The position numbers and the translations under genes were made by a program. The notes beneath the pieces are model-generated. The model saw only the letters and a list, made by a program, of their open reading frames with translations. It was not told where the DNA came from and ran no database searches. A stretch of 64,000 nt of DNA, taken from Vulcanimicrobiota bacterium. GTDB taxonomy: Bacteria > Vulcanimicrobiota > Xenobia > Xenobiales > JADMJV01. The stretch lies in NCBI GenBank assembly GCA_050250895.1, contig JBFWNU010000001.1, positions 3,840,149 to 3,904,148 of the forward strand, written 5' to 3'. Positions within the stretch are counted from its first letter, which is position 1. Each line of letters opens with the position of its first letter. Positions 7,546 through 56,522 of this stretch are shown one piece after another.

Positions 7546-8649
7546 ATGGTAGTCAAGCCCTGCATTTCCACACCCGTGTTTCGCCCTGCGCCGAGTCAGC
7601 CGGCCCCCGAGCAGGCGCCCGAGCCAGACGATCGTTTCGATCAAGGCAGCGAGTTGGGCAATCTTTCCAAATACGGCGTGGGCGGTCTGGTAGGCGTGGG
7701 CATCACCCTGCCCGCCATCTACGCCGGGGTGGTCGGCGGAGCCTTGCTCGGCTCGGCCTTCGGCGCCGGGTTGGGGCCGGCTGTGTCCTCGGTGACGACC
7801 CACGGCGCCCTCGGCTTCCTGCAGGGCGTGTGGACTTCTACCAGTCTGGCCGCTAAAGCCGGCATGTTCATCGGCGGATTTGGTGGTCTGGTGGGTGGTT
7901 TCAAGCTGGGGGCCGAACTCGGCGACGCTATCGGCCGGGTGACCGGCGCCACCCCCTCAGAACGGCGCCGCCATCGCAAGCTCGATCGTCTGACCGGTCC
8001 GCTCACCACCTTCGTAACCGGAGTCGGCGCTGGTTCGGGCTTCTTGGGAGGGAGCCTGATCGGAGCCGGTTTAGGGGCCACCGGAAGTTTCATCGCAGGC
8101 GGGTTCGACATCTCCCTGGCTGCCCTGCACGGCCCCGCCTTGATCGGTGCCGGGGTAGGGGCGACGGTGGGCACCCTGGCCGGTGCCGCCGGCAGCTACG
8201 AACTGACCCGCACCGTGGTAGACTTGGTAGCGGCTGCTGGCGAGAAGGGCGAGACCACCGCCCGCCAGCACGACCTGGCCGGCTACGTCAAGACCCACCC
8301 GGTGCGCAGTCTGATGACCGTTGCCGGTGCGGTCACCGGAGCAGCCGTCAGCCTGGGCAACGCCTCCTCTGCCTCCGGCGCGTTTATGGGCAGCGGGGCT
8401 CAGGTGCTTGGCTTCTTGCACGGGGGTAAGGCGGCCATCGATCTGTATGCCTCTTTAGACGCGAGTACGATGTATGCCGACCCCAGCATCTCGCGGGCCT
8501 GTTTGGTTCGTGGATTAGGCGAAGCCCTGACCTCGACGGGTTTGCTCATTTCTGGCTCGGTGTCACCGGTGCTCTCGCTGGGCTGCCTGGGGGCCGGCCT
8601 GGCCACCACCATCGTGACCGACGTGGTCTATCCAAAGAATCCCTACTAG
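7546..8649 (+). CDS. Glycine-zipper-rich membrane protein with Pro-rich leader
   Basis: SD AGGAGG; repeated GxxxG hydrophobic segments; no Sec signal. Confidence 0.7.
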   Translation: MVVKPCISTPVFRPAPSQPAPEQAPEPDDRFDQGSELGNLSKYGVGGLVGVGITLPAIYAGVVGGALLGSAFGAGLGPAVSSVTTHGALGFLQGVWTSTSLAAKAGMFIGGFGGLVGGFKLGAELGDAIGRVTGATPSERRRHRKLDRLTGPLTTFVTGVGAGSGFLGGSLIGAGLGATGSFIAGGFDISLAALHGPALIGAGVGATVGTLAGAAGSYELTRTVVDLVAAAGEKGETTARQHDLAGYVKTHPVRSLMTVAGAVTGAAVSLGNASSASGAFMGSGAQVLGFLHGGKAAIDLYASLDASTMYADPSISRACLVRGLGEALTSTGLLISGSVSPVLSLGCLGAGLATTIVTDVVYPKNPY

Positions 8650-10715
8650 TCCCAGTCGCTGCGGGTGCCGGTACCACCGACCGGAGCCTTGGGAGCGACC
8701 CGCTTTTGCACGGCCACTCGCACCACCTGGCCGCCTTGGACGGCCTGTCTGAGCAAGTCGCCCAGCACCCCGGTGGGGCGGGTGGCCAGGTACTTGAATT
8801 CGGCCAGCAGGATGAGCTTGGCTCGGGCCCGCGAGATGCTCACGTTGAGCAATTGGGCCGAAGCCGAGTTGAGGCCTTGATCGCAGAGCAGGTGACCTGG
8901 CTCGAGTGGCGGGGCATCCACCGTGTCGACCACCACCAGTTCGCGCTCGTGGCCCTGAAAGCGGTGCACTGTCGAACAGGTCACCCTGCCTCCGTCCAGG
9001 TTTTCGGCTCGCAAGAGGCGCTCGATGACCCGGACTTGCTCGCGGTACGGAGTGATGATGGCGATGTCCTCCACGCCATCCCCCAGGGCCTTGCGAGCGA
9101 TGGCCACGGCCACTTCGGCCGACTCTTCGTTGTAGCGGCTTTTGCTATTGGGCGGTCGCTGGCAAGTGCTCTTGCCGGCCAGATCGACCACCGTCACGCC
9201 CCGCCCGGGAAAAGGCTCGCGACCGGTCTTCTCGGCTAGTTCGCCGGTCGAGTCGGCGTTCTTGAGATTGCCCTCGTAAAACAGCCGGCTGACCAGCTCA
9301 CCGATCTCGGGAGCCATACGATACTGGGTGTCGAGCATCGAGACCAAAGGACTATTGCTCGGGTCGGGCACCGTCACCTCGAAGATGCTGCGCCCCAGAA
9401 TGCGCCGGGCCGTCTGGTTGCGGCTGCTCAGGATCGAGGGCAGCTGGCGGGGGTCGCCCACCACGATGACCTGCTGGCTAGCCCGGGCAGCGGCCAGAAA
9501 GACAGCCGGCAAGACGGCCATACCGGCCTCTTCGATGACCACCGTGTCAAAGGTCGCCCCTTCCAGCAGGGGATGCACCGACAGGTTAGCCAGGGTCGAA
9601 AAGACTACTCGGGCGGATTTGGCCACCGACTCGCGGCTCTCTTTGAGGGTCTGGCGGATCTCGAGCACGCGTGCTTTGGCTTCGGTCAACTCTGACTGCA
9701 GCTGGTTCGACAGCTCGTCGAGAGTGGCCAGCTGCTCTTCGGCCGGCAGGTCGACCACCTGGTCGAAGGCCTGGCCGTCAAGAATCTCGCGCAGCTCGCG
9801 CCGTTCCAGGCCGGGGTTGCCGCCGCCGAAAAGATCGAGCTGTTCGGGCTCGACCTGGCTGTGTAGCTTGACCACCGCTTTCGCCACCTTGCCCAATCGC
9901 TCTTGCAGGGCCGAACGCCGGTCGCGGCAGTCGACCAGTTCTTCGACCAGGGAGCGATAGCTGGCCTTGACCACGTTGCCCAGAGCGCAGGGCTCGTCGG
10001 GCTCGGTCTGGCCCAGGCGCAACAGCTTGCCCTGGCCGGCCAGTTCGGCCGTATCGGGTTGGCGTTTGAGGTGGGCCAGCACCTGGTCGATGGCGGTGTT
10101 GGTGTTGGAGACCACCAGAATGCGCCGGTCCTGTTCCAGGATGCGGGTGATGAGGCGGGCCAGGGTGGTGGTTTTGCCGGTGCCGGGCGGTCCCCACAGA
10201 AACGAGAGCTGATGATTGAGGCCGTGCTCGACGGCCTGTTTCTGAGCGGGGTTGAGGGTTGGCTCGTCGAGGCCAGCGGTCTGGCCGATGCGCTCGACGG
10301 GCAGCTTGCCGAAGGTGCGCAAGGCCATCTGGGGATGGTAGCCGTGGTCTTCCTCGGGCAGCCGCTTGAGGTCTTGCTGCATCTTCTCGTAGAGAAACCA
10401 GGGCACCACCTCCAGACCATAGTCGCTGGCGCTCGGATCAAAGGCCACCTCAGACTTGAGGACGACGTGGTCTTCGGCTAGTTCTTCGACCGTGACCGGG
10501 GTCCGGGCGCCGTCGCTTGCCACCAGCACCCCGCTCTGTCCGGCCGAGAGGCGATCCAGGCCGCGCTGGCAGTGGAAGGTGTAGAGGTCGTCGCTCTTTT
10601 GGCCGCGCCCCACGCGAATGAGGGTCTCTTGCAACTGCTCGCGGATCGACTCCATCTCGAGTTCAAGCCCCTGCAAGAAGGTATCTACAAAGCGTTGGAC
10701 CAGTTCGGCACTCAC
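8646..10715 (-). CDS. Superfamily 1 helicase (Upf1/DNA2-like, AAA_11/AAA_12)
   Basis: GPPGTGKT, SNTNTAID, IEEAG, VGDPRQL, QYRM, TPYREQ, TVHRFQGHE, NVSISRAR; start uncertain (GTG 10715 chosen because the longer ORF crosses a terminator). Confidence 0.9.
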   Translation of the reverse strand: MSAELVQRFVDTFLQGLELEMESIREQLQETLIRVGRGQKSDDLYTFHCQRGLDRLSAGQSGVLVASDGARTPVTVEELAEDHVVLKSEVAFDPSASDYGLEVVPWFLYEKMQQDLKRLPEEDHGYHPQMALRTFGKLPVERIGQTAGLDEPTLNPAQKQAVEHGLNHQLSFLWGPPGTGKTTTLARLITRILEQDRRILVVSNTNTAIDQVLAHLKRQPDTAELAGQGKLLRLGQTEPDEPCALGNVVKASYRSLVEELVDCRDRRSALQERLGKVAKAVVKLHSQVEPEQLDLFGGGNPGLERRELREILDGQAFDQVVDLPAEEQLATLDELSNQLQSELTEAKARVLEIRQTLKESRESVAKSARVVFSTLANLSVHPLLEGATFDTVVIEEAGMAVLPAVFLAAARASQQVIVVGDPRQLPSILSSRNQTARRILGRSIFEVTVPDPSNSPLVSMLDTQYRMAPEIGELVSRLFYEGNLKNADSTGELAEKTGREPFPGRGVTVVDLAGKSTCQRPPNSKSRYNEESAEVAVAIARKALGDGVEDIAIITPYREQVRVIERLLRAENLDGGRVTCSTVHRFQGHERELVVVDTVDAPPLEPGHLLCDQGLNSASAQLLNVSISRARAKLILLAEFKYLATRPTGVLGDLLRQAVQGGQVVRVAVQKRVAPKAPVGGTGTRSDWD

Positions 10716-10773
10716 CGAGGCTGGTTTGAGGCACGACCACGGCCTCCTGCCGAACGTTGGTGCGACCCCAAGC

Positions 10774-10799
10774 AAAAGGCCCCCGCCAGAGCGGGGGCC
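10774..10799 (-). terminator. Intrinsic terminator of the 12945-10813 operon
   Basis: ggcccccgc-caga-gcgggggcc stem followed by TTTT on the minus strand. Confidence 0.75.
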
Positions 10800-10812
10800 A
10801 GGGAAGGGTTGA

Positions 10813-12048: not shown

Positions 12049-12099
12049 TTTGAGACTCCATTTCGTTTGAATTGCGGGCGCAAGCGGAGTCAGTCTGTA

Positions 12100-12945: not shown

Positions 12946-13076
12946 TTTGATGCACTCCGTATTCTGTGAATTCGGGTTTGCAAGCGTCGTGAACCATACG
13001 TCGCAATTTTCTCCGAGGTTCATTATTTGCGCGTAGTAATAGGATACTATTTTCCTATAGTAAAATTGTTGGGTGG

Positions 13077-14564: not shown

Positions 14565-14786
14565 GGCTAGTGTACATACCGTGGCCAGAGCATGAGCAAA
14601 CCCGCCCGCTGATGGCCGTAGAAGGCGGGCCTTCGTCGCACCTTACGACCAAGAGCTGAGCAAAAGCAGTCCCAACCGGCCCTGGTCGAGCTTTTCAGAG
14701 TGGCTTGAGCGTCTCGTTCTACACTCACAAAGGGGAGAGGAGCCAGCCGCCGACAGCTTTTGAACCGGCCAGGCTGACAGAGGAAG

Positions 14787-16297: not shown

Positions 16298-16305
16298 CAA
16301 TCCCC

Positions 16306-17148
16306 CTACGCTGCGATGAGCGCTTCCTGTTTGGGATGGTCTCGATCGTAGCGTTCTTTGATTTCCTCGAGCTCGCGCGAGTAGCGCTCCATGGTGCGGT
16401 GGGCCGAATCCATACTCTGGTCGAAGTCCTCATAGGCTCCATCGGTCTCGAACGGGCCGTACTGGGGGGCTCGGGTGATGTCGATCTTGATGGGCGTCTC
16501 CTCATCCCACATCTGGTGGATCCACTCCTCGGCTTTCAGGGGATGGTCGGCCATGCTCGGGTCCATGATGTAGGCCGAGACCTGGTGGGACTCGTCTTCG
16601 GCAAACACCAGGGGAGCTACGTGATACCACCACTCGGCGTGCATATACTTGTTGTCGGCCTCGAGTCGTCCCGGGTTGCCGATGTCTTCAAGCATCACGA
16701 ACATCTTGCCGCAGTTGACCTGATCTTCGCGCATGGTTTCGCACATCTTGTGGGCTCGGGCGTAACAGCCGTCGGTGATATATTCGAAGGGGATCTCGGG
16801 ATCGCCGGCCAGTTTGTGAAACTCGGCGAAGAGCTGATCGCTGGTCAGGATACGCCCTTCTAACCGCGACACGTCCTGATGATATTGAATGCGAGCGTCC
16901 TCGCCCAGGTCGCCGAGCAGGCGTTGCTCGAGGGCGCTCTGATTTAGATCGCGGTTGGAAGGCTCTTCGTTGAAGTCGTCATCGCCACCACTGACAAGCT
17001 CCCCGTGGGTGAGCAGCCACTCGCGGTGAGTGGCAAAATCAGCACTGCGACCCAGCTCGAGGGTATCGGCGAAGGCCTCTTTTGGCGTGGTCTCGATTCG
17101 GCGTGGCGTGAGCGTTGGCGTGTGACCTCGATGACCGATCGGATTCAT
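16306..17148 (-). CDS. Protein-glutamine glutaminase (deamidase) family protein
   Basis: IPFEYITDGCYARAHKM (Cys), WWYHVAP (His), IMDPS (Asp), as in Chryseobacterium protein glutaminase. Confidence 0.88.
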   Translation of the reverse strand: MNPIGHRGHTPTLTPRRIETTPKEAFADTLELGRSADFATHREWLLTHGELVSGGDDDFNEEPSNRDLNQSALEQRLLGDLGEDARIQYHQDVSRLEGRILTSDQLFAEFHKLAGDPEIPFEYITDGCYARAHKMCETMREDQVNCGKMFVMLEDIGNPGRLEADNKYMHAEWWYHVAPLVFAEDESHQVSAYIMDPSMADHPLKAEEWIHQMWDEETPIKIDITRAPQYGPFETDGAYEDFDQSMDSAHRTMERYSRELEEIKERYDRDHPKQEALIAA

Positions 17149-17164: not shown

Positions 17165-18541
17165 TCAGGCCGTCTGTGCCGGCCCTCGTTCTAAGACGTT
17201 GCTGATACAGCGGATGGCTCCCCGCCACGAGGTCAGGGCCGGCAGTTTGAGGGGGACGACCTCAAAGCCGAGCGATTCATAGACCTGACTGGCGCGGCGG
17301 TCCAAAGCCGGCAAATCGTAAGTGGGCAAGAAGACGCGCTTTACCTGGTTGCCGCCGTCGTCGATGTAGTTCTCCATCAGGCAGTTGTTATAGGTCACCC
17401 AAGAAAGTTCGGGCGGGCCCTGGAGATAGGGCAGCCGCACTACGTTGTAGCCACGCTCGCGCATCAGCTGGGCGTTGTGGTCGAACTGATGCTGCAGCAG
17501 CGGGTCACCCTCGGTGTTCTGATGGACCAGCGCGGCCAGGTGGTCCTGACCCTCGGTGCCCAGATTCTCGTTGAGGCGGCGGTTGTGGTCGGCGTATTGC
17601 TCGGGGCTGAGGCTGGCCACGGTCGAAAGGGCCCAGCTGGGATCGCCCACCAGGATGGTGTGGTCATCCACAGGGGTCAGCCCCATGTCGATGTGGAAGG
17701 TGGCCGGCACCTCCAGTTCGGGCGTTTTCGGGTCGTCGGCCCCCACCACGGTGACCGGGCGCCCGTATTTCTCCTCGAAGATGCCCTGAGCCAGACCCAA
17801 CCAGTGCTCTTCACCGGGACCCCGGGTCGATTTGTAGAGGTTGGGTTCGAAGTGATAGCCGACCTTGGTGTTGTCTTCGACCATCCTCACCGAGAACGGC
17901 GTGGTCGATTGGCCGGGGTGCTCTTCGTCGTACAGCTTCTTGGCCGTCAAATAGAGCGAGGTGAAACCTAGAAAGCTCTCGTTGCTGTTCGAGACCTCGT
18001 CGCCACCGTCGGTGACCAGGCGCTTGTCTGCGTCGAGTTCGACTCCGGCGAATTCGGCGATGCGCGGGGGCAACAGCTCGTCGTCGCCGTGGGGTCGCAT
18101 GGTGGTCTGGCCGAGCAGGCGCGAGGTGCCGTTGGCGTTGCGCAAGCCGACCATCTGATCGCGAGCCCACATGGTGATGTCGAGGCCATCGTTGACCATC
18201 AAGCCGAAACGCTCGCGGTTGGGAATGTTGCGCTCTTCCAGGCGTTGGGCCAGGGCCTGGCGGTCTTCGTCAGACTCGAGCACGATGGTGAAGCGCGTCT
18301 TGTCGTCCATGGTCTCGAACACCTGGAACCAGGCGTTGAAGACCTCGTTGCGGATGTTGGTGGGCACGTCGTGATCCAGCTGCAGAGCCAGGTGGCGAAT
18401 TTTGCCAAACGGCTCGGAGTAGACGCGGGTGGGAGCCTCGCTCAGGCTGACCTGATCGGTGGCCACGGCCGGTCCCTGGGCGGGACGGTTTGCGGGTCTA
18501 ACGGAAAGCGCCGGACGTTGGGTGACAGCCGAGATCTGCAT
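17165..18541 (-). CDS. Pentein-fold arginine/agmatine deiminase-like protein
   Basis: MWARD, DGGD, FHIDM, TYNNCL, GAIRC catalytic motifs. Confidence 0.8.
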   Translation of the reverse strand: MQISAVTQRPALSVRPANRPAQGPAVATDQVSLSEAPTRVYSEPFGKIRHLALQLDHDVPTNIRNEVFNAWFQVFETMDDKTRFTIVLESDEDRQALAQRLEERNIPNRERFGLMVNDGLDITMWARDQMVGLRNANGTSRLLGQTTMRPHGDDELLPPRIAEFAGVELDADKRLVTDGGDEVSNSNESFLGFTSLYLTAKKLYDEEHPGQSTTPFSVRMVEDNTKVGYHFEPNLYKSTRGPGEEHWLGLAQGIFEEKYGRPVTVVGADDPKTPELEVPATFHIDMGLTPVDDHTILVGDPSWALSTVASLSPEQYADHNRRLNENLGTEGQDHLAALVHQNTEGDPLLQHQFDHNAQLMRERGYNVVRLPYLQGPPELSWVTYNNCLMENYIDDGGNQVKRVFLPTYDLPALDRRASQVYESLGFEVVPLKLPALTSWRGAIRCISNVLERGPAQTA

Positions 18542-18628
18542 AGGCTGAGACTATGCCGAGGTCTGCTCGACGGGTTGAACGATTTGTTAATTTCCGTGAG
18601 CAAGCTCGGGCCGGACCCGAATCGGTAG

Positions 18629-25854: not shown

Positions 25855-26835
25855 TTAGTAGCCCCGATAAGCTCCACCCTGACTCATGCTCTTCACGCCC
25901 GGCACGTTCGAGGTCGAGCCGTAGCGCGCGACGGCATACTTCACGGCGGCCACGATGTTGTGGACGGGATTCCAGATGTCGTCATGACCGGGCGACTTGT
26001 ATTGATTGAAGGTGCTGTCGATGCACTGCATGATGCCCTTGGAAGGATGCCCCGCCTTGGCGTTGCTGTCCCAGTTGTTCTGGGCGTTGGGGTTGCCTCC
26101 CGATTCCTTTTGAATCATCAGATAGATGTCTTGCTCGCGCACTTTGGACATGTCCACGCCATCTTGTTGGAGAATCTGCATCGCTTGAGCGACCCACTCT
26201 CTGACGTTGCCAGAAGGCTGGGTAGTAGGGGCCGGACCCGAGGCGGGGCCGGCCTCTTGAGGTCCGCCGCCACCCTGGGGGCCTCCGGCACCTTGGGGTC
26301 CTCCCCAGTCTTGCTGCTCGCGACGCCAGGGGGTTCGGGCGGCCGGGTTATTGTCGCCACCGGCTACCGGTGCGCCACCTTCGGCTCCACCCGCCTCGCC
26401 AGCGTTCTGCCCGTCCTGGGCCTGATCGCCGCCGTCGACCTTGGTGAGGTCCGCCTGAAGCTTGGCTAGCTGCTCTTCGAGCGCTTTTTTCTTTTCGGGA
26501 TCTTTTTCGGCCTCGATCTGTTGCTGCAGATCTTGAATCTGCTGATTCAGGTCGGTCTTCTGTTGCTCGGGAGTCTTGGGTGGGTCAGATTCTTTGGCCT
26601 TCTCGCCCTGGTCCGCAGCCCTGGCCTCTTCAGACTCAGGCCCGAAGTTGCCCTTCAGAGCGTCGACATGCTTGGAAAGGCCGGGTTCCTTTTTCTCGCC
26701 TTGCGTGTTCGTGAGGGAGACTTTCTCCTCGGGGGCGGCCTTGGGGGCCTCTTTGGGGGCTGGCGTCTCGGTCTTCTTCGGCTGGACCGGCCGGGCTTGG
26801 GTCGTTTGATGGTTGTTGACTTTGGGCGTGCTCAT
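25855..26835 (-). CDS. SLT-domain lytic transglycosylase with disordered/coiled-coil N-terminus
   Basis: KESGGNPNAQNNWDSNAKAGHPSKGIMQ, IWNPVHNIVAAVKY; SD GGAGGAG. Confidence 0.9.
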   Translation of the reverse strand: MSTPKVNNHQTTQARPVQPKKTETPAPKEAPKAAPEEKVSLTNTQGEKKEPGLSKHVDALKGNFGPESEEARAADQGEKAKESDPPKTPEQQKTDLNQQIQDLQQQIEAEKDPEKKKALEEQLAKLQADLTKVDGGDQAQDGQNAGEAGGAEGGAPVAGGDNNPAARTPWRREQQDWGGPQGAGGPQGGGGPQEAGPASGPAPTTQPSGNVREWVAQAMQILQQDGVDMSKVREQDIYLMIQKESGGNPNAQNNWDSNAKAGHPSKGIMQCIDSTFNQYKSPGHDDIWNPVHNIVAAVKYAVARYGSTSNVPGVKSMSQGGAYRGY

Positions 26836-27726: not shown

Positions 27727-29502
27727 CTACGACACCGCCTGGCGAGCCACGATGGCGTCACCTTCGACCCGCAGGTCGCAACTATTGGTGATGTAGCCGA
27801 CCACATGCCGGGCGGCCTGTTCAAGGTCGTCGATGTAGATGTGCTCCATACCGGTGTGCATGTCGCGCTCGCCAGCGCCCACCGCCAGGCTACGGATATG
27901 ACCGCTATTGAAGCCCACGGTGTTAGCGTCAGAGCCTGCTCCGGTCAGGATGGGGGCGTGAATGGGCCGGGGCTCGAGACCGGCCCGGGCCATCGACTGG
28001 AAGACCACCTGGATCAGCGGGTCTTCTTGCGAAAACTGATATTTGATCGAATCGGGATTGACGATGACCGCGTCGTTGGTCAGATGCACGTCCTTGACGC
28101 TCAGCGAGTCGACCACGAATCCGAGCGTCGGGCGGGTCGAGATGTCTTCGGGCTTGAGTCGGCTGGCTCCGCGCAGGCCGCGTTCTTCATCGACCGGGAA
28201 GACCAGCTTGATTTCAGGATGGTCGAGCTGTTGCTCCAACACGCTGGTCACGCCTTCGAGAATCTCGGCCAGTCCGGCCCGATCGTCGGCCCCCAGCACG
28301 TGGCGCCCGTCGGTGTAGATGCGCTTGCCGTCGTTGCGGATCGAACCGGGGTTGGTGGGCTCGACCGTGTCTTGATGGGCGCTCAGCATGACCGTCGGTG
28401 CGTCTTGCTGGCCGGGGCTGGCCGGCAGGGTGCCGATGAGGGTGCCGTCTTCTTTGCGCTCGACCGCAAAGCCCAGGGCCTGCATGCGGGTGGTGAGTTC
28501 GGCCGTCACCGCCTGCTCTTTCCCTGAGGGTCCGTAGATGCCCGTCAGGGACACGAAGTTGTCGACCAGTCGCTGGCGATTGACTTTGGGTTCGGGACGG
28601 TCGTTAAAGTGGATGTTCTGGACCGGTTTTTCAGCTAGCAAACGGTTGGTGGTCAAAGTGGTGTCCACCAGAAAGCCGACGATCGGCTCGGCAATGGCTC
28701 CGTTGAGCTTGAGAAAGCCCTTCTTGAGCGCCCCGGGCTCTTTGACGGCGGGTTGGCGGACGGGAGCTTTCACCCCGGCTGCCGACAGGCCGGTGCCGAC
28801 CAATTCGCCAGCGGCCCGACCGATTCCGAGAAAGTTCTCTTCGAGGCCGCCGATGACCATGCCGGCCAGGGGGCCGACCATGCTCCCCATGACCTGCCCC
28901 ACCAGCGAGTCGTAGCCGAACATGTTCGTGACCAGGTTGGGCAGTCCGTAGGCGCATACGAGCGTGCCAGCGGTGGCTCCGATCCCCTCGCCGATCTCGA
29001 CCACCTTGTTGCGGGCGGGGGCACCGCCCTGGGCTCGGTGGAGCAGCGAGGGCAGCAGGGCTTCGCGAGGGGCGGCACCCGTAGCCGGCGCCTGGGCTAA
29101 AGTGACCGGGCCCGGAGTGGTTTCGGCCTTCGAGCCCAGAATGTGGCGGGCGGCGCCGACTCCGGCGCCCACGGCGCCCAGGGCCAGCTGACCCACTTTT
29201 TTGCCGATGCCGAGATAGCGCTCCTCCACCGAGACGGCGGCCATGGTGCCGATGGACAGGGCGATGGCGGCGGGGATAGGAATGTCTGGCAGGCGCATCA
29301 TCACCTGGAGTGGGACTTGCGAGGTGGCGTAGGCGACCAGACCGAGAGCTCCGAGTTTTTTGCCCTGGTGGCCCCAGCTCTGGGCGTGCTCCTGAACCGA
29401 TGAAAGAAAGGAGTCTTCGGGCAATGCGGCCGCTGGGGCCGCCTGAGGACTGGCGTGAAGGTTTGCCCTTGGCGTAGGCAGGGGGAAAGATGCAATTTTC
29501 AC
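27727..29502 (-). CDS. M20/M28 metallopeptidase (peptidase T-like) fused to an N-terminal glycine-zipper region
   Basis: SAHQDTV, GADDRAG, DEERG, GSDAN, MHTGMEH. Confidence 0.87.
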   Translation of the reverse strand: MKIASFPLPTPRANLHASPQAAPAAALPEDSFLSSVQEHAQSWGHQGKKLGALGLVAYATSQVPLQVMMRLPDIPIPAAIALSIGTMAAVSVEERYLGIGKKVGQLALGAVGAGVGAARHILGSKAETTPGPVTLAQAPATGAAPREALLPSLLHRAQGGAPARNKVVEIGEGIGATAGTLVCAYGLPNLVTNMFGYDSLVGQVMGSMVGPLAGMVIGGLEENFLGIGRAAGELVGTGLSAAGVKAPVRQPAVKEPGALKKGFLKLNGAIAEPIVGFLVDTTLTTNRLLAEKPVQNIHFNDRPEPKVNRQRLVDNFVSLTGIYGPSGKEQAVTAELTTRMQALGFAVERKEDGTLIGTLPASPGQQDAPTVMLSAHQDTVEPTNPGSIRNDGKRIYTDGRHVLGADDRAGLAEILEGVTSVLEQQLDHPEIKLVFPVDEERGLRGASRLKPEDISTRPTLGFVVDSLSVKDVHLTNDAVIVNPDSIKYQFSQEDPLIQVVFQSMARAGLEPRPIHAPILTGAGSDANTVGFNSGHIRSLAVGAGERDMHTGMEHIYIDDLEQAARHVVGYITNSCDLRVEGDAIVARQAVS

Positions 29503-29600
29503 AGTGAGATGACCTTTGTTTGATTTTTATCTATATGTGGCTCTATCTTCACACGACCCGCTTAAAGGAACCTGAAGTCGACCGGACCGAACGGCTGGGC

Positions 29601-37983: not shown

Positions 37984-40089
37984 ATGGGTCCAACCATCCA
38001 CAGCTTGCCCGCCGGCAAGGTTCTGCCGCCGCGTACCGCGCCACCCGGGGCCACCCCTCAGGCCGAGCCGGCTGCGATTGACCAGGCGACCCTGACCCCC
38101 TCGACCGATGTCCGCCCGAGACGGCGCAGAGCCCTGAAGTGGTTCTTGCGCGGCGGCGCCATGTTAGCGGCCAGTCTATCGGGCCTGGCCGGCATCGGCT
38201 ACTTTGGCAATCGGGCCGCTCTGCAAGAACCACCACGCCTGTCGATGACCTTGCCGCTGGAAGCGCACTTCGGGCCGCCCGCGAAGGAATCGTCCCCGGC
38301 ACCCGTGGCGCATTCGCGGGTGACCACCAGCGGTGGCGCGGTCCAGACCACCGAGCAGTTGCGGCCTCCTACCGGTGGCGTGTCCATCTTGCTGCCGCAG
38401 GGCTCGACCACCAGATTTTCGCGACAGCTTCGCGCTCACCCTGAGGTGCAGAAGCAACTCGAGCAGGTGGCCCGAGATCTCAACCAGGCCCTGGCCCGAG
38501 TCGAGATTCCCAAGACCGAGCTGCTGCTGGATCTCGAAGCGCCCCTGCCGGTGGGTCAGCAGGCCTTCTTTCACGTGGGAGGAGTCGATCTTCCTTCGCT
38601 GGGCTTTCGTCAGCTCGAGCGGACCAGGTTGCCACTGGCCCTGGAATTGGCGATCGACCCCATCGAATCGGGACTCAAGCTCGAGGTCGGACCCACCGAA
38701 ACGGATGCTCCGGTTCGTCCTGATAGTCTGAAGGGTCCCGGTGTTTACCTCGGCTCGGTCGAGTTGTCGATTCGGGCCGAGAAGCCCGAGGTGGACCTTT
38801 CGGGGTCGGCCCAACTCAAGCTCGACCTCGATGGAGCGGCCACCAGGGCCCGCTTGCCAGGGCAGTCCGGGGCCGCTCGTCAGGCCCTCGAGGGCCGTCT
38901 CGAGAGCGCCAGAAAATTGCGCGAGATCGGCGCCGAGAGTTCTTTTGGCTCGTTGCTGCGCGAGGGCTTCGAAGCGCAGGATGCCCAGTTCTCGGTGGCG
39001 CTCAAGAGCGCCCGAGAGCAATTGGCTTCGGTACGTTTTGATGTCTGGCTGGGCCAGGATGTCACCGGCGACGGGCAGAGCGATCTGCATCTGGCCCAGC
39101 AGGCCAACACCCAGGGTCTGGATGCGCTCGACATCAGCCTGTCCCGGCTCGAGCGACAGGGCCATTCCCAGGCCGGCTGGCTGGGCCAAACCGTCAACGA
39201 TCAGGTGCATCAACAGTTTCATCAAGGCATTCGCGACGGGGTGGGGCAGGCCGTGGCCCAACTGCGCGGGCGCGCCGAAGAGATGGTTGCTCAGGGTCTT
39301 GACCGCGGAGTCAGCCTGCTATCAAAGCACGGCAATCAAGAACTCGAGCAGCTCTATGGGCGGGCTCGCGGTATCGACCTGGGCAATCTCGACCTTCGTT
39401 TGTCCAGTCTGCGCATGAGCGACCAGGGGGTGCTGGTCGGACTCAACGGTAAAACCCTCGACGAAGGGGTGGTGCCGGTCCTGCCGGCCAGCTTCTCGCA
39501 ACACCCCGAGGCGGTGGTGGTCACGGTCGCCTCGAGTGAACTCGAGGCCCGAATGGAAGGTCTCGATTGGCCCGCGATCATGGCCAAAGTCAATCAGGCC
39601 AATTCGGGCTATTCCCTCGCCCTGGCCCAAAAAGACGGCCAACCGGTACTGCCCCGGCTGATCTGGCACGACGGGCAGCCAGCTCTGATGGCCGAGGTGG
39701 TGGCCACCCAGAAGGCGGCGTCCAAGCCAGGCCTGGGCTCGCTGCTGCAGAGCGTCACCCCGAGCACGGTGGAAGCCAAAGCCCTGGTTCCATTCGCTCT
39801 GGGCGTGGAGGATGGCCAGTTGAAGGTGACTCCCGATCTTGAGCATTTCGAACTCGAGCGCCATCGCCAGGGCCAGGGATTTCAGCTGGCCGACCTGTTG
39901 CCAGACAAAGCGCTGGCCGGCATCATCCGGTCTGTGGTCGGCGAGGCAGGAGGCTCGCTCAAGCTTCCGCTCGGGCAAGAGGGGGTCGAACTGGTGGGGG
40001 CCGCCGCCAGCGAGGGTCCCAAGAGCACCGTTCGTTTTCACGTGCAGGCCCAGCTTGGCCCAGAAGTCCTGGGACGAATTTCCCAGTAA
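37984..40089 (+). CDS. Hypothetical membrane-anchored protein with Pro-rich leader
   Basis: 701-aa ORF; single TM after RRRR; long alpha/beta body. Confidence 0.75.
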   Translation: MGPTIHSLPAGKVLPPRTAPPGATPQAEPAAIDQATLTPSTDVRPRRRRALKWFLRGGAMLAASLSGLAGIGYFGNRAALQEPPRLSMTLPLEAHFGPPAKESSPAPVAHSRVTTSGGAVQTTEQLRPPTGGVSILLPQGSTTRFSRQLRAHPEVQKQLEQVARDLNQALARVEIPKTELLLDLEAPLPVGQQAFFHVGGVDLPSLGFRQLERTRLPLALELAIDPIESGLKLEVGPTETDAPVRPDSLKGPGVYLGSVELSIRAEKPEVDLSGSAQLKLDLDGAATRARLPGQSGAARQALEGRLESARKLREIGAESSFGSLLREGFEAQDAQFSVALKSAREQLASVRFDVWLGQDVTGDGQSDLHLAQQANTQGLDALDISLSRLERQGHSQAGWLGQTVNDQVHQQFHQGIRDGVGQAVAQLRGRAEEMVAQGLDRGVSLLSKHGNQELEQLYGRARGIDLGNLDLRLSSLRMSDQGVLVGLNGKTLDEGVVPVLPASFSQHPEAVVVTVASSELEARMEGLDWPAIMAKVNQANSGYSLALAQKDGQPVLPRLIWHDGQPALMAEVVATQKAASKPGLGSLLQSVTPSTVEAKALVPFALGVEDGQLKVTPDLEHFELERHRQGQGFQLADLLPDKALAGIIRSVVGEAGGSLKLPLGQEGVELVGAAASEGPKSTVRFHVQAQLGPEVLGRISQ

Positions 40090-40172: not shown

Positions 40173-40889
40173 ATGATGGGACGCCAACTCCTGATGATCG
40201 GATTGCTCTTGACCACCCTCGCCGGGGCCGACCCCACCACGGTCGAGCAAGAGATCGTGGACCGCTGCAACCAGATTCGCGCTGCTCACGGATTGCCGAC
40301 TCTGAAGACCCATCCGCGCTTGCTCGAGGCGGCCCGCCAACACTCGAGCGAGATGCTCGAACTCGGCTATTTCGGGCACACCTCTCCGACGAAGGACCAC
40401 CGCCGTTTGCGCGATCGATTATTGATGAGCCGCCACTTCGACCTCACTTTCGGAGAGAACATCTATAAGTGCCGCGGCTACGATGAGCCCGACCTGGCTC
40501 GCAAAGCCGTCGACGCCTGGATGGCCAGCCCGGCGCATCGCAAGAACCTGCTCAATCCGCGCTTTAACAGGATTGGCGTCGGAGTCGTCGGACAGGGAGA
40601 CACCTTCCTCTTCACCCAGGTCTTCAGTTATCAGACGGTGGAGATCCTCGAGCAAGTCTATACGCCCCAGGGCTCAGCGATGCGCCTCGACTTGCGAGGC
40701 CGAGTCCACGAAGGTCCTCGGACCGGCGCCCTGTTGGTCGGCGGTCACAAGGTGGCCGAGTGGAAATCCGACGCCACCGGCCACTTCGCCGTCTCGGTCC
40801 GCCTCGAGGGGCCGGCTCCGGTCGGGGTCGGTCAAACGACCTCTCCCTACCATTGGCGCATCGAGACCGAGGTCAGGCCTCGACTTTGA
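40173..40889 (+). CDS. CAP (SCP) domain secreted protein
   Basis: NQIRAAHGL, HSSEM, FGHTSP, GENI, WMASPAHRKNLL, IGVG. Confidence 0.92.
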   Translation: MMGRQLLMIGLLLTTLAGADPTTVEQEIVDRCNQIRAAHGLPTLKTHPRLLEAARQHSSEMLELGYFGHTSPTKDHRRLRDRLLMSRHFDLTFGENIYKCRGYDEPDLARKAVDAWMASPAHRKNLLNPRFNRIGVGVVGQGDTFLFTQVFSYQTVEILEQVYTPQGSAMRLDLRGRVHEGPRTGALLVGGHKVAEWKSDATGHFAVSVRLEGPAPVGVGQTTSPYHWRIETEVRPRL

Positions 40890-42783
40890 CCTCGAACCCA
40901 CCTACGCGCACCAGGTCATTCTCGGTTTCGAGCCGGGCGTCGCTGGTCGTCATCGTCTTGACCAGGTCAGAAATGGTCGCCTCGGGCCGGGATTGAACCA
41001 GTTCCACCAGTTCGTCGACCTGCTTGAGGAAGGCTTCCTGACGAATCTCTTGCTTTTGACTGAGCACTTCGGCGGGGGTGGCCACCAGCAGGGCGCAGCC
41101 CAGTTCGAGCGCTCGTTCGAGCGTGGCCGGGGCGAGGGCACCGGTCAGCAGCGTCTCGGCGGTCGCATGCCAATCGCGGCTGGCCAACTTGCGGCTGCCG
41201 CAGAGCGTGCCCAGCTGGTGGCGAACCTTCGCGAGCTGGTCTGGCGTTCCGCCTTTGAGGGCGAAGACGGCGGCCGGGAAGATGAACTCCGGCGAGCCTT
41301 GATGGAGTTGCTGCCGGGTCGCCTGCCCCAGAGCGTCGAGGGCCTCAGGGGCCGACTTGCCCGTGGCCAGGATTTTCTCGTAGTCTTTTTCGAGGTCATA
41401 GCGACGGAACCGGTCTTGTGACTTCTGGTGGTAGGCCAGCATGGTCACCAGGTCCACCTGGTCTGACAGGGTCGCGGCGGTCGAATTGAGCGAGGCCTTG
41501 GAGAGCAGCGATTCGGCGTCGCTGCCGGGCCCAATGATCTTTTCCAGCCGACCGAGCAGGCCGATCGCAGTTGCTTCGTCGACCTGCCGCAAGGCATCGT
41601 CGGGTTTGAGCTTGCCGAACATGATGGCCTGCTCGGCCGCCCGGGGAGTGCGCTTGAGCCAGCTGCAAGTGAGACCCACCGCCTGCTCGAGGCGCTGGCC
41701 GTCGAAGTTCTTGCGCAGCGATTCGTAGCGGGACAGGGCGCCGCTCAGGCGGCGGTCGTCCTCGGGAGCGTGAGTGAAGAGCTGCTTGACGAACTCCAGT
41801 TGAGAACCGGGGGTGTGGCCCTGGCAAGGCGTGTTGACCACCTGATAGACGGCTGGCAGGCCCGCCATTTCCGACGGTCCCAGCCCCGGGATGAGCTGGC
41901 TCTGGACAAACTGCAATCCCGCGCGGGCCTGGTCGAGGGCCTCACGCAAGCCCTCGGGGTCGGGAGTGGCCACTTTGGCCAGGTGAAAGGTCGTCTTGTC
42001 GATGGTCCAGGCGATGCTCGGCTGACCACCTCGTTCGGCCGATTCGTAGAGGGCCACCGGGTCGTTGCCCATCAGACTCCCCTGACTCTCCAACTGCTTG
42101 AGTTCGCGGGCAAGCTCTGGTTTCTCGAGCAGGTCCTCAAGTCCACTGCCTCTGAAATAGTCGGCCGCCACCGTGGACCAGCCGCTATAAGAGTGCCCTT
42201 CGCGCTCGAACGAGGCCGAGCGGCCGTCGAGCAGATACGAGAGTTTGGAGGAACCCGAATCGAAGCCCGACTCCCACAGGCGGTGGGCGGCCCGCAACTG
42301 ACGGCCGCGGTCGAGCGTGACCGGCTCGGCTCCCAACAGCCCGACATCCAACGATTCGAGTTGTCTCAGGCTGCGCAAGTAGTCATATTCTGGCTGGGAA
42401 GACAGGCGCACTCGAATGGCCTCGTCGCCGGCCGAGGTCAACTCGTCAAAGATCTCGTTGCCATCCAGGTGGCGTTCTTTGCCCAGCAGACGACTCAAGC
42501 CCGACCGGTGCTGATAGAACTCGACCCCGGCTTGCTTGAGGTCGCGCACCACCTCGACCACGGCCTGACGGTGGGCCTGGGTCAAGACCAGACCGGTGGG
42601 GCCACCGACACTGCTGGCCGTGGTGCTTTCTACCGCCTGTTGAAGCGACTTCCAGAGCCAGCTACGGTCCGTGCGGGGCTTGGACAGGCTGACCGAATCG
42701 ACCGCTCCCGGCGGGTTCGGTCGAACAGCAGGCCGACACGGCGCCGGGCCGGGCGTGCCCAGGCGAGACCCCTGAATCCTCAT
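40873..42783 (-). CDS. Hypothetical helical protein with Pro-rich leader
   Basis: 636-aa ORF with typical codon usage; no recognised domain. Confidence 0.75.
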   Translation of the reverse strand: MRIQGSRLGTPGPAPCRPAVRPNPPGAVDSVSLSKPRTDRSWLWKSLQQAVESTTASSVGGPTGLVLTQAHRQAVVEVVRDLKQAGVEFYQHRSGLSRLLGKERHLDGNEIFDELTSAGDEAIRVRLSSQPEYDYLRSLRQLESLDVGLLGAEPVTLDRGRQLRAAHRLWESGFDSGSSKLSYLLDGRSASFEREGHSYSGWSTVAADYFRGSGLEDLLEKPELARELKQLESQGSLMGNDPVALYESAERGGQPSIAWTIDKTTFHLAKVATPDPEGLREALDQARAGLQFVQSQLIPGLGPSEMAGLPAVYQVVNTPCQGHTPGSQLEFVKQLFTHAPEDDRRLSGALSRYESLRKNFDGQRLEQAVGLTCSWLKRTPRAAEQAIMFGKLKPDDALRQVDEATAIGLLGRLEKIIGPGSDAESLLSKASLNSTAATLSDQVDLVTMLAYHQKSQDRFRRYDLEKDYEKILATGKSAPEALDALGQATRQQLHQGSPEFIFPAAVFALKGGTPDQLAKVRHQLGTLCGSRKLASRDWHATAETLLTGALAPATLERALELGCALLVATPAEVLSQKQEIRQEAFLKQVDELVELVQSRPEATISDLVKTMTTSDARLETENDLVRVGGFEVKVEA

Positions 42784-42887
42784 ACCGAAAGAATAGTGGG
42801 AGCCTCTGAACGAACACTGAATGGCGAAAAGTGTCAGGTCGAGGGCGTGTTTTTTGGTAGGTGTGGACCAGATTCTGTCGAAAGGGC

Positions 42888-47410: not shown

Positions 47411-47781
47411 CAGCGTCCACCGGTCACTTTCTGGCGCACCTGCTCCAACTCGGCGGCGCTCAAGCCCATGCGCACCACCAGGCCTTCGATGTAACCTGCC
47501 TCTTCGGGCTGCAGAACGCCGTCGGCATAGCACACCGTCAGCAGTGATTGAAGGGCCAGCAGATGGGCCTCGCGGTCGTCAAAGTATTGATCGAGGGGGA
47601 TCGGGGCGCCCTGGGGCGGTTCGGCCAGGTTTTCGTCCAGCAGGCAGATCACCTCGGGTAAAGCCAGTCCGAAATGGCGCAGGATATTGGTCAGCGCGTG
47701 GACCTCGACGGGGCTCACCACCTGATCGGCCCAGGCCACTTGAAAGAGCGCTCGGATAACAGCTTGTAACGACTCAGACAT
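47410..47781 (-). CDS. TerB family protein
   Basis: VAWADQVVSPVE and VCYADGVLQPEE repeats. Confidence 0.85.
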   Translation of the reverse strand: MSESLQAVIRALFQVAWADQVVSPVEVHALTNILRHFGLALPEVICLLDENLAEPPQGAPIPLDQYFDDREAHLLALQSLLTVCYADGVLQPEEAGYIEGLVVRMGLSAAELEQVRQKVTGGR

Positions 47782-52247: not shown

Positions 52248-52340
52248 GCGGATCCTCTCCTAGAATCTTGACGTAACACCAGATGGCCAGACCCCAGACG
52301 AAGCCGACCGACACCACTAGAAACACCCAACCGGCAGGAC

Positions 52341-53948: not shown

Positions 53949-54063
53949 CAGCCTTCCCTAATTTATGAGCAGAAAGATACCACGCGACGTTGTCTTCCAC
54001 CTGCGAGGGGAACCCTCACTTTTCGGCCTGGACGCACGCGGCGGAATCGGCTATTTTTAGGGA

Positions 54064-55289: not shown

Positions 55290-55393
55290 CATCTGGCAAT
55301 CTGGCGTTAACATGATTTACATGTCGGCAATAAGTTTTGTCGCTGCCAGGGCTTATCCTAGAGCTAGATACGGTTGTAAAGGAGAGAGAATCT

Positions 55394-55606
55394 ATGGGTC
55401 AGCTCGGCGGAATCGGTAAAATGCTCGGCGGCGTCCTCGGTGGCGGCGGCGGTGGCGGTGGCGGTGGTGGCGGCATCGGCGGCCTCATCGGTGGCATCCT
55501 CGAGAAGGTCCAGGGTGGACTGGCCAACAAAGGCGACGAGAAAGCTCAGAAGGGCGCCCAGGCAATGGACATCGTCAAGAACTTGCTGGGTTCTTTCCTG
55601 GGCTAA
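55394..55606 (+). CDS. Small Gly-rich amphipathic protein
   Basis: Strong SD AAGGAG, ATG 55394, highly biased codons, 70 aa. Confidence 0.7.
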   Translation: MGQLGGIGKMLGGVLGGGGGGGGGGGGIGGLIGGILEKVQGGLANKGDEKAQKGAQAMDIVKNLLGSFLG

Positions 55607-55608
55607 CG

Positions 55609-56178
55609 ATGAGCCAGGGTAACAGCCAGTTGCCCGACGTGCTCAGCCAGGCCCTGAACGTGACCTGTCCGTCCTGCGGGCAGGTCACTAGCATTCGCGA
55701 GGCCAGTTGCTCTGGTTGCGGTCAGGCGCTCAGAGCGGCCGAACCGGACGAAGAATCGGTCTCCTACGTTCATCGCGAAGGGCTCGAAGAGAAGGCTGCG
55801 CACGGAGCGGGTTCCAAACAACTTAAGCTTCTGCACGAGGCTTACCAGGGCTTGCGCTCGGGCCAACTCGATCTCGAGGGTTACCGGGCCCGGGTGGGCG
55901 CGGTGCTCGAAGAGACGCTGGCCAAGCGGGACATCATGAACATCGACAGCCTCAAGGAGTTCGAGGCCCAGTTGCCTCCCGAGGCGGCCGAGATGATGCG
56001 CGAGACGGCTCGCCTCATCGATGATTTCGCGGCCGGACTCTACGCTATGCTCGACTGCGACGGCCAGGATTTCTCCCCGGCCGAGCGCGGTCTGCGCGAA
56101 ATCGAAGCGGTGCTGACCGACATGTCGCTAGCCCATCAAGACGCCGACGAACTCGAACAGGAGTACCAGCAGGGCTAG
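55609..56178 (+). CDS. Zinc-ribbon helical hypothetical protein
   Basis: CPSCG..CSGCG then acidic helical domain. Confidence 0.75.
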   Translation: MSQGNSQLPDVLSQALNVTCPSCGQVTSIREASCSGCGQALRAAEPDEESVSYVHREGLEEKAAHGAGSKQLKLLHEAYQGLRSGQLDLEGYRARVGAVLEETLAKRDIMNIDSLKEFEAQLPPEAAEMMRETARLIDDFAAGLYAMLDCDGQDFSPAERGLREIEAVLTDMSLAHQDADELEQEYQQG

Positions 56179-56522
56179 TGGCTGGCTAGATAGATAGCGA
56201 GTCCGGCCACGCCAACGGCCGCGCCAGCGACGAAGCTTTCCAGGGGGCCGGGGCCGTGGGCGCGAGATTCGTACATTCTGCTGAGGGCGCTGTATTCTCG
56301 CGTTCTGAGCTGGCCTTCGCGGATGTCGAGTTGACCCTCTCTCCCTTGCACGATCGCTTCACGGGCATCGAGTTGCCGGCGCCAGGCTTCCAACTCGCGT
56401 CGTTCTTGTCCCAGGTCTTGGGTCGTACCAGCGAACTGGTCCTGGTCGCTCGGGTTGGCGGGCTTACCGTGGGCCCGATGGCAAGAGCCGGCGATGGGCG
56501 TGCTGACTGGTAGAATCCTCAT
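56175..56522 (-). CDS. Small coiled-coil protein with C-terminal TM
   Basis: SD GAGG; leader, LDARE..REGQL coiled coil, FVAGAAVGVAGLAIYL. Confidence 0.6.
   Translation of the reverse strand: MRILPVSTPIAGSCHRAHGKPANPSDQDQFAGTTQDLGQERRELEAWRRQLDAREAIVQGREGQLDIREGQLRTREYSALSRMYESRAHGPGPLESFVAGAAVGVAGLAIYLASH

Follow-up and report, generated by a model that had tools for sequence, protein, structure and literature searches.

A conserved N-terminal leader with its own promoter on unrelated proteins of a Vulcanimicrobiota bacterium: a candidate Sec- and Tat-independent export signal

Introduction

Do eight otherwise unrelated proteins encoded in one stretch of a Vulcanimicrobiota genome begin with the same peptide, and what might that peptide do? 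The stretch, referred to below as the window, comprises 64,000 nucleotides of contig JBFWNU010000001.1 (G000:C1:3840149-3904148), part of a genome assembly of 9.5 Mb with ~63% G+C, 17 contigs and 99.6% completeness. A sequence-only reading of the window had proposed that eight scattered genes, named here by the positions of their start codons (7546, 17148, 18541, 26835, 29502, 37984, 42783 and 56522), share a disordered N-terminal leader that serves an effector repertoire as an export signal. All eight open reading frames were present at these positions, and their translations gave the quoted N-termini, with ATG as the start codon in seven and GTG in 29502.

The leader was found to be a lineage-specific tag on at least ~125 proteins of this genome, or ~340 genes when those of a shared promoter set are included. 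It is rated here as a leader of the consensus sorting or export kind, with a regulon of its own. The shared promoter had not been part of the sequence-only reading, and no description of either the leader or the promoter was found in the literature and with the terms searched.

A genome-wide leader family

Genes were called with a crude codon-statistics caller made for this analysis (8043 genes, 89% coding), and the genome-wide counts are approximate. At residues 30-40, the bare pattern [DE]-x-V-x-L-[ST] occurred three times as often as in other parts of proteins, and the proteins carrying it there align as one evident family. A hidden Markov model (HMM) was seeded with 31 pattern-carrying proteins and iterated with hmmsearch over the called genes. 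It recovered 96 proteins at E<0.01 and, with the limit relaxed to E<1, 141-154, compared to 0 and 0-2 in the reversed proteome, and profile position 1 fell on a start codon in 91 of the 96 matches at E<0.01. The start-anchored set at E<1, used as the leader set below, comprises 125 proteins of 72-1651 aa on all large contigs. When residues 2-45 were shuffled, 0/125 matched in each of five replicates, compared to 109/125 of the real leaders (E<1), and none of 538 internal Met-started windows rich in Pro, Ala, Arg and Thr matched the profile. We regard it as practically certain that the leader is a real feature. The density of one leader gene per ~8 kb that the sequence-only reading gave describes the window only; across the genome, there is about one per 30-75 kb.

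The leader consensus is M-[KRQ]-[IV]-x-P-Φ, followed by an acid-free stretch rich in Pro, Ser, Thr and Arg and by P-x-D-x-[VF]-x-L-[SG] at residues ~28-38. Among the 125 leaders, aligned to profile A1 (36 leaders from outside the window in the same genome), position 3 holds Ile (83) or Val (13), and a hydrophobic residue stands at position 6 in 54% of the aligned leaders. A conserved Arg (95/125, median residue 15) and a conserved Pro (106/125, median residue 20) precede the distal motif, in which Asp or Glu (108/125, median residue 31) is followed by any residue, Val (65) or Phe (19), any residue, Leu, and Ser or Gly. The hydrophobic residue of this motif lies at residues 26-40 (median 33) and, in the 95 leaders whose aligned column holds a hydrophobic residue, 22-36 residues (median 28) past Ile3. 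A variant ends in D/E-x-[FWY] in place of D-x-V-x-L-S, as in 7546 and 56522.

Over the first ~20 residues, where Pro, Ser, Thr, Ala and Arg abound, Asp and Glu were recorded at 0-1% per position, compared to ~10% in other genes; from residue ~23 on, the leaders turn acidic. No acidic residue occurs in the first 12 positions in 95% of the 125 leaders vs 34% of other genes, an aliphatic residue or Pro occupies position 3/4 in 92% vs 52%, and Ser makes up on average 8.9% of the first 50 positions vs 5.7%. An AlphaFold2 model of a leader protein with an S8 subtilase domain (67-row alignment) reached a mean predicted local distance difference test score (pLDDT) of 90.3; residues 1-40 scored <50 and were modelled with no secondary structure. 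A recurring sub-variant of the leader carries a Cys cluster (for example A-C-G-C or C-S-C-G-S-C-A-K-C) just past the conserved Arg position, as in C1:3447226 (g00694), g00355, C4:472859 (g06798) and g01253 and in the homologues P0025, P0033 and P0010.

Start codons and selection on the peptide

An N-terminal motif of this kind could lie upstream of the true translation starts. The leader start codon is ATG in 108/125 genes and the first start codon of the open frame in 92/125, and leader codons 2-35 have a third-position G+C of 0.71, compared to 0.54 in the 60 nt upstream. Selection acts on the leader at the level of the peptide, as the synonymous codons of its conserved residues show: Ile3 is written ATC in 50, ATT in 28 and ATA in 6 leaders, the conserved Ser by both AGC and TCN, and the conserved Leu by six codons.

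The leader is also kept in orthologues from other genera. Orthologues of the window gene 17165-18541 in six metagenome-assembled genome records, assigned to Vulcanimicrobiota (Candidatus Eremiobacterota) or unclassified and 53-55% identical, keep a D-[ST]-F-type leader. For the S8 subtilase cargo, nearly all of 120 listed homologues begin MI[ST]x[IV], and an A1 score of >=8 bits was reached by 49 of the 120. The only S8 homologue named from another phylum, a Bacteroidota protein, has a classical signal peptide in place of the leader. Because of the ATG and first-start usage, the contrast in third-position G+C, the synonymous codons and the conservation in orthologues of other genera, we take the leader starts to be real.

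Six subtilase homologues of 48-65% identity (P0014, P0046, P0065, P0082, P0104 and P0124) are named 'Armatimonadetes bacterium', some with the same leader type, and other close homologues are named Eremiobacterota or Vulcanimicrobiota. The Armatimonadetes names could stem from outdated or erroneous binning, or the leader may be more widely distributed.

Cargo diversity and absence of known sorting signals

Compared by BLASTP without their first 45 residues, the 125 proteins fell into 100 unrelated clusters, 89 of them singletons, and the cargo consists mostly of hydrolases. A Pfam scan covering 40 of the 125 (representatives of multi-member clusters and the longest singletons) returned a match at E<=0.001 for 25 and none for 15. 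The proteases comprise an S8 subtilase that carries a pro-domain and MAM-like domains, three clostripain-like C11 proteins, M13 and M48; the lipid-acting cargo includes patatin, a lipase-type alpha/beta hydrolase, a lipid desaturase and GDPD. Carbohydrate and storage functions are represented by alpha-amylase, GHL10, an MGH1/trehalase-like hydrolase and a PHB depolymerase (PHB_depo_C). Two PAD-like proteins, a BamB-like propeller, a GlpO/GlpD-like flavoprotein, an ADP-dependent sugar-kinase-like protein, a PRK/uridine-kinase-like P-loop protein, DHHA1 and a PI3/PI4-kinase-like domain were also recorded, and the window adds SLT and a deamidase. Several of these cargo families act outside the cytoplasm in other organisms. 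Small proteins (<=200 aa) account for 41/125, and 34 of these 41 hold a hydrophobic or glycine-zipper-like segment; a zipper-like motif occurs in 44% of all leader proteins vs 11% of other genes.

Two individual cargo proteins were noted: C3:95007-95936 (L068), a leader followed by the PI3/PI4-kinase-like domain (E 1.1e-9), and C1:102425-105613 (L044), a leader followed by the patatin-like phospholipase domain (E 3.3e-22). Both kinds of domain are common among effectors that act inside other cells.

None of the 125 leaders has a Sec-like hydrophobic region (h-region) in its first 30 residues, compared to 20% of other genes, by a Kyte-Doolittle criterion (10-mer >=2.4) that is crude and not SignalP. 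The anti-correlation with signal peptides anticipated by the sequence-only reading, and its picture of unrelated cargo spread over the genome without general secretion (Sec) or twin-arginine translocation (Tat) signals, thus hold by this measure. Arg-Arg in residues 8-25 is not enriched (12% of leaders vs 10% background), and the stretch past the conserved Arg holds Asp, Glu and Lys, unlike the uncharged Tat h-region. Gly-Gly within three residues after the distal motif was found in only 6/83, and the single C39 match genome-wide is a stand-alone 233-aa frame, too short for a fused ABC transporter of the C39 exporter type. A Tat signal and a double-glycine leader were therefore rejected. The n-region of a Sec signal-anchor was rejected as well, since many leaders run straight into soluble domains such as C11. 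The ~100 cargo families argue against encapsulin or microcompartment targeting, at which no search was aimed.

A shared promoter and regulon

It was noted that TTTCAG occurs within 150 nt upstream of 40/125 leader genes vs 200/4423 others (Fisher p=5e-22). The surrounding layout is TTTCAG-N5-TTTCAG(G), ~10 nt, then cTAGaCT. A 36-nt weight matrix of this element found 307 sites at >=20 bits, compared to 4 in the reversed genome, and these lie upstream of 273 distinct genes, 192 of them monocistronic. Sites at >=20 bits precede 57/125 leader genes vs 59/2000 other genes, and the union of the leader and promoter sets holds 342 of the 8043 called genes. From these associations, the leader genes appear to form one regulon.

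The site ends <=8 nt before the start codon in 175/273 genes and exactly 3 nt before it in 112. No Shine-Dalgarno-like 5-mer was found in any of the 175 close-site genes, and TANNNT occurs 5-8 nt before the start in 77% of them vs 8% of other genes. Because the site commonly ends 3 nt before the ATG with no Shine-Dalgarno sequence, we infer that the close-site genes give leaderless mRNAs. The direct repeat, with its 11-bp period and its position ~10 nt from the -10-like hexamer, would be an activator site that replaces the -35 element. Pho boxes offer a comparable case: at these activator-dependent promoters, the -35 element gives way to a direct repeat of 11-bp period that stands ~10 bp before the -10. 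The TTTCAG-N5-TTTCAG, ~10 nt, TAGACT layout is alike; the half-site sequence differs, as does the placement of most sites for transcription to start at the ATG.

The promoter set shows the leader's N-terminal features as a whole. Ile, Val or Leu occupies position 3 in 61% of promoter genes (background 23%), acidic residues are absent from the first 12 positions in 74% (33%), and a Sec-like core was found in 2.9% (20%). The same trend holds for the 217 promoter genes outside the HMM set, and promoter genes with Sec signal peptides lack the start motif. None of the 29 Trans_reg_C matches, searched for an OmpR-type regulator with the promoter, falls in a site-bearing gene, and 4/29 have a member of the leader or promoter set no more than three genes away; this search yielded no candidate regulator. 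At 10 genes, the longest operon preceded by a promoter site (C1:2461934-2471463, first gene g00577) sits 2 kb upstream of g00439, a 1001-aa FlhA-C paralogue.

Distribution among relatives

We assessed 121 genomes of the phylum, scoring 59 candidates per genome with a bias to the query genome, so that the leader counts are lower bounds. The leader profile matched at E<=0.01 in 32/121 genomes. With the query genome excluded, these included 11/15 genomes of family f1 and 5/5 of family f3 (5-15 matches each). Some f2 genomes (genera g8 and g9) gave 1-3 weak matches, and single marginal matches were seen elsewhere.

The promoter pattern TTTMAGNNNNNKTTNAGN{9,11}TANNNT was found in 15/15 genomes of f1 (5-51 matches vs 0-2 in the backward control) and in 5/5 of f3 (13-52 vs 0). 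It was weakly above control in f4 and at control level in f2, f15 (0/45) and the remaining families sampled. Leader and promoter occur together at the relatives' loci retrieved by the leader search. When loci were sampled by the promoter pattern alone in G088 and G096, 17 of 20 matches had an open frame starting within 80 nt, and ~10 of these 17 begin leader-like as judged by eye. The leader and the promoter thus co-occur in two families, f1 and f3, of Vulcanimicrobiota/Eremiobacterota relatives. A 44-position profile run against 1.84 billion proteins gave 6 matches at E<=0.001, all from residue 1; at that scale, the profile is too short to gauge distribution.

Candidate export machines in the genome

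The sequence-only reading had pointed to a type III-like or novel machine. Two full-length FlhA (FHIPEP) genes were found, each in a flagellar context beside FlhB, FliPQR-type, C-ring and proximal-rod genes. These two complete sets of export-gate and proximal-rod genes lie at C1:556000-593000 and C1:1459000-1476200, and the NPTH site is present in both FlhB proteins. Flagellin_N matched one flagellin-length frame and one shorter frame of 306 aa, and a single long Flg_bb_rod frame (599 aa) was found; loci with flagellar parts lie at C1:1291927-1292847 and C1:126189. One of the two basal bodies may lack external parts of its own.

Neither full-length FHIPEP gene stands in an injectisome context. 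Genome-wide searches with one Pfam family per system gave no match to VipB (type VI secretion system, T6SS), Phage_sheath_1 (contractile or extracellular contractile injection systems) or VirB4 (type IV secretion system). Two secretins belong to a type II secretion-like locus and a type IV pilus locus, and no leader gene was found at either. Of the known routes that take unfolded proteins with a non-hydrophobic N-terminal signal, the flagellar type III gate is the one left after these searches.

Eight further paralogues consist of FlhA-C only, at C6:529401-530381, C1:2013982-2014740, C1:2475431-2476438, C7:121919-122905, C1:1126976-1127566, C7:117253-118194, C1:2008860-2009774 and C8:31716-32150; one FlhA-C paralogue is apparently fused to a helix-turn-helix-like N-terminus. 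FHIPEP matches number 4 to 9 or more in large-genome relatives vs 2 in small-genome relatives. A linkage of these paralogues to leader genes was considered and set aside, with one adjacency (on C7, g01310 near g00915) and the promoter in 0/8.

Comparison with known export signals

Early flagellar substrates carry an N-terminal hydrophobic signal and a gate recognition motif that docks at FlhB-C (Bryant et al. 2022; PMC8983047). In Salmonella FlgD, at least 19 and optimally 24 residues separate the two, and the gate recognition motif F-x-x-x-Φ lies at least 30 residues from the N-terminus in all rod and hook subunits (PMC8983047). Like these subunits, the leader is unstructured, has a small hydrophobic residue within its first five positions and lacks a cleavable hydrophobic core. 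It also bears a second short hydrophobic motif ~30 residues in, of the sequence D-x-[V/F]-x-L and not F-x-x-x-Φ, at a spacing of 22-36 residues that matches the one described for FlgD. It differs further in its extra fixed Arg and Pro, in its ~100 non-flagellar cargo families and in the location of its genes outside flagellar loci.

For Hrp effectors of Pseudomonas syringae, Schechter et al. (2012; PMC3338616) give three N-terminal patterns: Ser makes up >10% of the first 50 residues, position 3/4 is aliphatic or Pro, and the first 12 positions are free of acidic residues. The leaders follow the second and third of these patterns, at the frequencies reported above, and like those effectors they are encoded by scattered, mostly monocistronic genes under one dedicated promoter type. 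In contrast to those signals, which have none, the leader has a true consensus, and no injectisome was found in this genome.

A likeness to FlgM had been suggested by the sequence-only reading, and a loose architecture is all that could be upheld. The FlgM N-terminal secretion signal has been used to export fusion proteins through the flagellum, as stated in a review (PMC7911332). The genome's own FlgM shares the loose layout only (V3, and SSVEVS at residues 37-43). The Pfam family FlgM (PF04316) gave one match above cut-off in the genome, the true flgM (C1:558747-558902), and two further matches at E~0.4 in unrelated frames, none of them a leader gene. The shared layout, as in FlgM of E. coli and Bacillus, is a Met-x-Ile/Val start, a disordered stretch and V-x-[LV]-S near residue 35-45; the leaders lack a sigma-28-binding domain.

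As a short conserved tag on many unrelated proteins, limited to lineages that own the pathway, the leader resembles the Tat signal, the double-glycine/C39 leader and the T6SS N-terminal markers such as prePAAR, which are consensus tags on unrelated cargo. It differs from these in the missing h-region, Arg-Arg enrichment and Gly-Gly site and in the lack of VipB and Phage_sheath_1 matches noted above. The small leader proteins, 34/41 of which combine the disordered tag with hydrophobic or glycine-rich segments, are reminiscent of chlamydial Inc proteins; there is no sequence relationship to them, and no injectisome was found in the genome.

Interpretation and alternative explanations

On balance, we lean towards the leader being a Sec- and Tat-independent export (delivery) signal. 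An unstructured tag of 35-40 residues would mark a co-regulated arsenal of hydrolases and small membrane-active proteins for export. The favoured route, which takes up about half of our confidence in export, would be one of the two flagellar-type type III gates, with the N-terminal hydrophobic element and the distal hydrophobic motif acting like the two export signals of early flagellar subunits.

Several observations weigh against this proposal. The leader is linked to type III export by neither experiment nor co-occurrence: FHIPEP is present in 117/121 sampled genomes of the phylum, including families without leader and promoter, and because it is nearly universal, its co-occurrence with the leader is uninformative. 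The flagellar loci and their surroundings hold no leader gene or promoter site, and a flagellar gate is not known to inject into cells. The distal motif, P-x-D-x-[V/F]-x-L-[S/G], is not the F-x-x-x-Φ described in PMC8983047; the Ser content of 8.9% is below the >10% given in PMC3338616; and the genome's own FlgM scores E=360 against A1 and E=18 against leader9, the iterated profile. The 'acid-free' and 'Ile3' features are partly built into the profile that selected the leader set, and the leader counts in relatives are biased to the query, as in the same-genus genome G088 with 3 leader matches but 51 promoter-pattern matches. The cargo also includes families that are normally cytoplasmic or need nucleotides (the ADP-dependent sugar kinase, the PRK/uridine-kinase-like protein, an intracellular-type PHB depolymerase, the GlpO/GlpD-like flavoprotein and DHHA1). 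Such cargo suits either of two cases, delivery into another cell or a complete lack of export.

The other half or so of our confidence in export goes to the possibility, doubtful in itself, that the leader serves a machine outside the known systems searched, or a flagellum-derived secretion apparatus, in which case its flagellar likeness would be convergent. The confinement of leader and promoter to f1 and f3 (and weakly f4), while flagellar gates are phylum-wide, speaks for such a machine, as do the fixed residues of the leader, when type III signals are normally without consensus, and the nucleotide-dependent enzymes and PI3/PI4-kinase-like domain, which would need the cytoplasm of another cell. 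A flagellum-derived device would agree with two gate and proximal-rod sets beside only one flagellin-length Flagellin_N and one long Flg_bb_rod frame. Against this, no candidate machine was found, 192/273 promoter genes are monocistronic, and the missing VipB, Phage_sheath_1 and VirB4 matches narrow the known options without pointing to a new one. The tag could instead work inside the producer, for example by marking proteins for degradation as an N-terminal degron, by tethering or localising them, or by serving as the regulatory handle of a developmental or starvation regulon whose hydrolases mobilise the cell's own reserves. We consider this rather improbable. PHB_depo_C, alpha-amylase, the trehalase-like glycoside hydrolase, GDPD, the GlpD/GlpO-like oxidoreductase, the sugar and nucleoside kinases and the lipid desaturase would suit cytoplasmic storage mobilisation, the genes behave as one regulon, and a Met-basic-hydrophobic start resembles some protease recognition tags. 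However, subtilases with pro-domains, C11, SLT and GHL10 are extracytoplasmic in other organisms and, if kept in the cytoplasm, would have no use or do harm, the Bacteroidota S8 homologue has a Sec signal where the leader sits, and the fourfold excess of glycine-zipper-like segments in leader proteins also goes against an intracellular role.

Far less probable is that the M-[KRQ]-[IV] start is a by-product of what the promoter's leaderless mRNAs require for transcription and translation, and not a protein signal. The close sites without any Shine-Dalgarno-like 5-mer would agree with this, as would the somewhat higher frequency of Ile, Val or Leu at position 3 in the close-site class (66%) than in promoter genes with a 5' untranslated region (54%). 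However, genes with a long 5' untranslated region and AGGAG keep Ile/Val3 (54% vs 23% background), codon 2 is free to vary, Ile3 uses three codons, the promoter genes with Sec signal peptides do without the start motif, and conservation as peptide extends to the Arg, the Pro and the distal motif, which are encoded 40-100 nt inside the coding region. The chance that the leader is an artefact of mis-called starts, low-complexity composition or coincidence is close to negligible. The gene caller often chose a downstream start, codon bias is weaker in the leader, and two of the eight window members are statistically weak; the reversed, shuffled and internal-window controls, the anchoring of profile position 1 on the start codon and the exact 3-nt spacing between promoter and ATG in 112 genes all contradict an artefact, as does the retention of the leader, both in orthologues and where relatives were sampled through nothing but the promoter pattern.

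The broadest form of the export reading is that large-genome Eremiobacterota/Vulcanimicrobiota possess an undescribed delivery pathway, built on a flagellum-derived gate or on a wholly unknown machine and probably directed at other cells. We put this forward only tentatively, as we do its scope: a true consensus leader, ~270 mostly leaderless mRNAs, and a cargo of >100 hydrolases, lipid- and nucleotide-acting enzymes and glycine-zipper membrane proteins. The chance that the leader belongs to a new pathway is substantial. A predatory lifestyle, predicted for related ~9-Mb large-genome Eremiobacterota in PMC9259500, where secretion systems were also scanned, would be compatible with the cargo.

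If the tag does direct export, one pathway's substrates could be read from the genome by a peptide tag and a promoter. Substrates of type III and other Sec-independent systems are otherwise hard to recognise, their signals having no consensus. In a phylum that has hardly any cultured members, and in which predation has only been guessed, 125-340 candidate exported proteins would thereby be catalogued. The short, portable tag and the defined promoter can be used in reporter assays, and the families with both, beside sister families with neither, offer a handle on machine and regulator through phylogenetic profiling. The regulon would also be a large and clean example of one built on leaderless mRNAs. 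Should the tag not be an export signal, a conserved handle of 35 residues on ~100 unrelated proteins still demands a new explanation.

Leader genes and promoter elements in the window

The eight genes are the top-scoring gene N-termini of the window; besides their own alternative starts, the sole other at E<=20 is the start at 47739 (E=9.7, A1). Scored against A1 and leader9 in a search space of 8051 N-termini, they are graded as four strong, two moderate and two weak members. The strong members are 42783 (E 4.6e-10 with A1 and 1e-8 with leader9), 18541 (1.3e-9 and 3e-8), 7546 (0.02 and 1.6e-9) and 29502 (0.044 and 1.8e-6). The moderate members are 37984 (70 and 4.5e-4) and 26835 (0.08 and 0.003), and the weak members are 56522 (5.3 and 0.32) and 17148 (10 and 1.1). 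The enzymatic identities that the sequence-only reading had guessed for the cargo were recovered by Pfam for the deamidase, the lytic transglycosylase and the peptidase; the deiminase-like assignment stayed below cut-off.

Among the strong members, 42783 is a 636-aa protein with no family above cut-off (40873..42783, minus strand; leader MRIQGS...AVDSVSLS). Its promoter element (42787..42822, minus strand, 22.3 bits) ends 3 nt 5' of the ATG, in the geometry expected of a leaderless mRNA. The deiminase-like protein of 458 aa at 17165..18541 (minus strand; PAD_porph below cut-off) has the leader MQISAV...ATDQVSLS and is preceded by a weak promoter-like element at 18556..18591 (minus strand, 15.8 bits, below the 20-bit genome-wide threshold) with GTTAAC/GTTCAAC half-sites. 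The 367-aa protein at 7546..8649 (plus strand, no Pfam match) carries its leader at ~residues 1-35 (MVVKP...PEPDDRFDQG), followed by glycine-zipper-like hydrophobic segments. The shared element upstream of it (7474..7509, plus strand, 31.4 bits) lies 36 nt 5' of the start, with an AGGAGG ribosome-binding site between. At 27727..29502 (minus strand, GTG start), a 591-aa protein combines the leader VKIASF...LPEDSFLSS with hydrophobic segments and then an M42/M20/M28 peptidase domain, behind a promoter-like element at 29542..29577 (minus strand, 18.1 bits).

Of the moderate pair, 37984..40089 (plus strand) encodes a 701-aa protein with no Pfam match, in which the leader MGPTIH...AAIDQATLT is followed by a hydrophobic segment and preceded by promoter repeat half-sites only. 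The SLT lytic-transglycosylase protein at 25855..26835 (minus strand, 326 aa, SLT E 1.1e-11) has a long leader that lacks Ile3 and ends in EEKVSLT, and no promoter site. The weak member 56522 is a small protein of 115 aa (56175..56522, minus strand, no Pfam family above cut-off) that starts MRILPV, carries a distal DQDQF and a C-terminal hydrophobic segment, and belongs to the promoter set through a shared element at 56538..56573 (minus strand, 28.3 bits), 15 nt 5' of its start. The other weak member, the Gln_deamidase_2 protein at 16306..17148 (minus strand, 280 aa, Pfam E 4.6e-25), has the leader variant MNPIGH...EAFADTLELG and no promoter site; because it starts 16 nt past the stop of the upstream leader gene 17165..18541, the two are probably co-transcribed.

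One further site in the window (14693-14728, plus strand, 20.7 bits) lies 58 nt 5' of the non-leader gene 14787-15998, and the promoter is therefore not exclusive to leader proteins. The N-terminus encoded by this gene (plus strand) is hydrophobic and resembles a signal peptide or anchor (MKRFAVLLIGLSAGG...).

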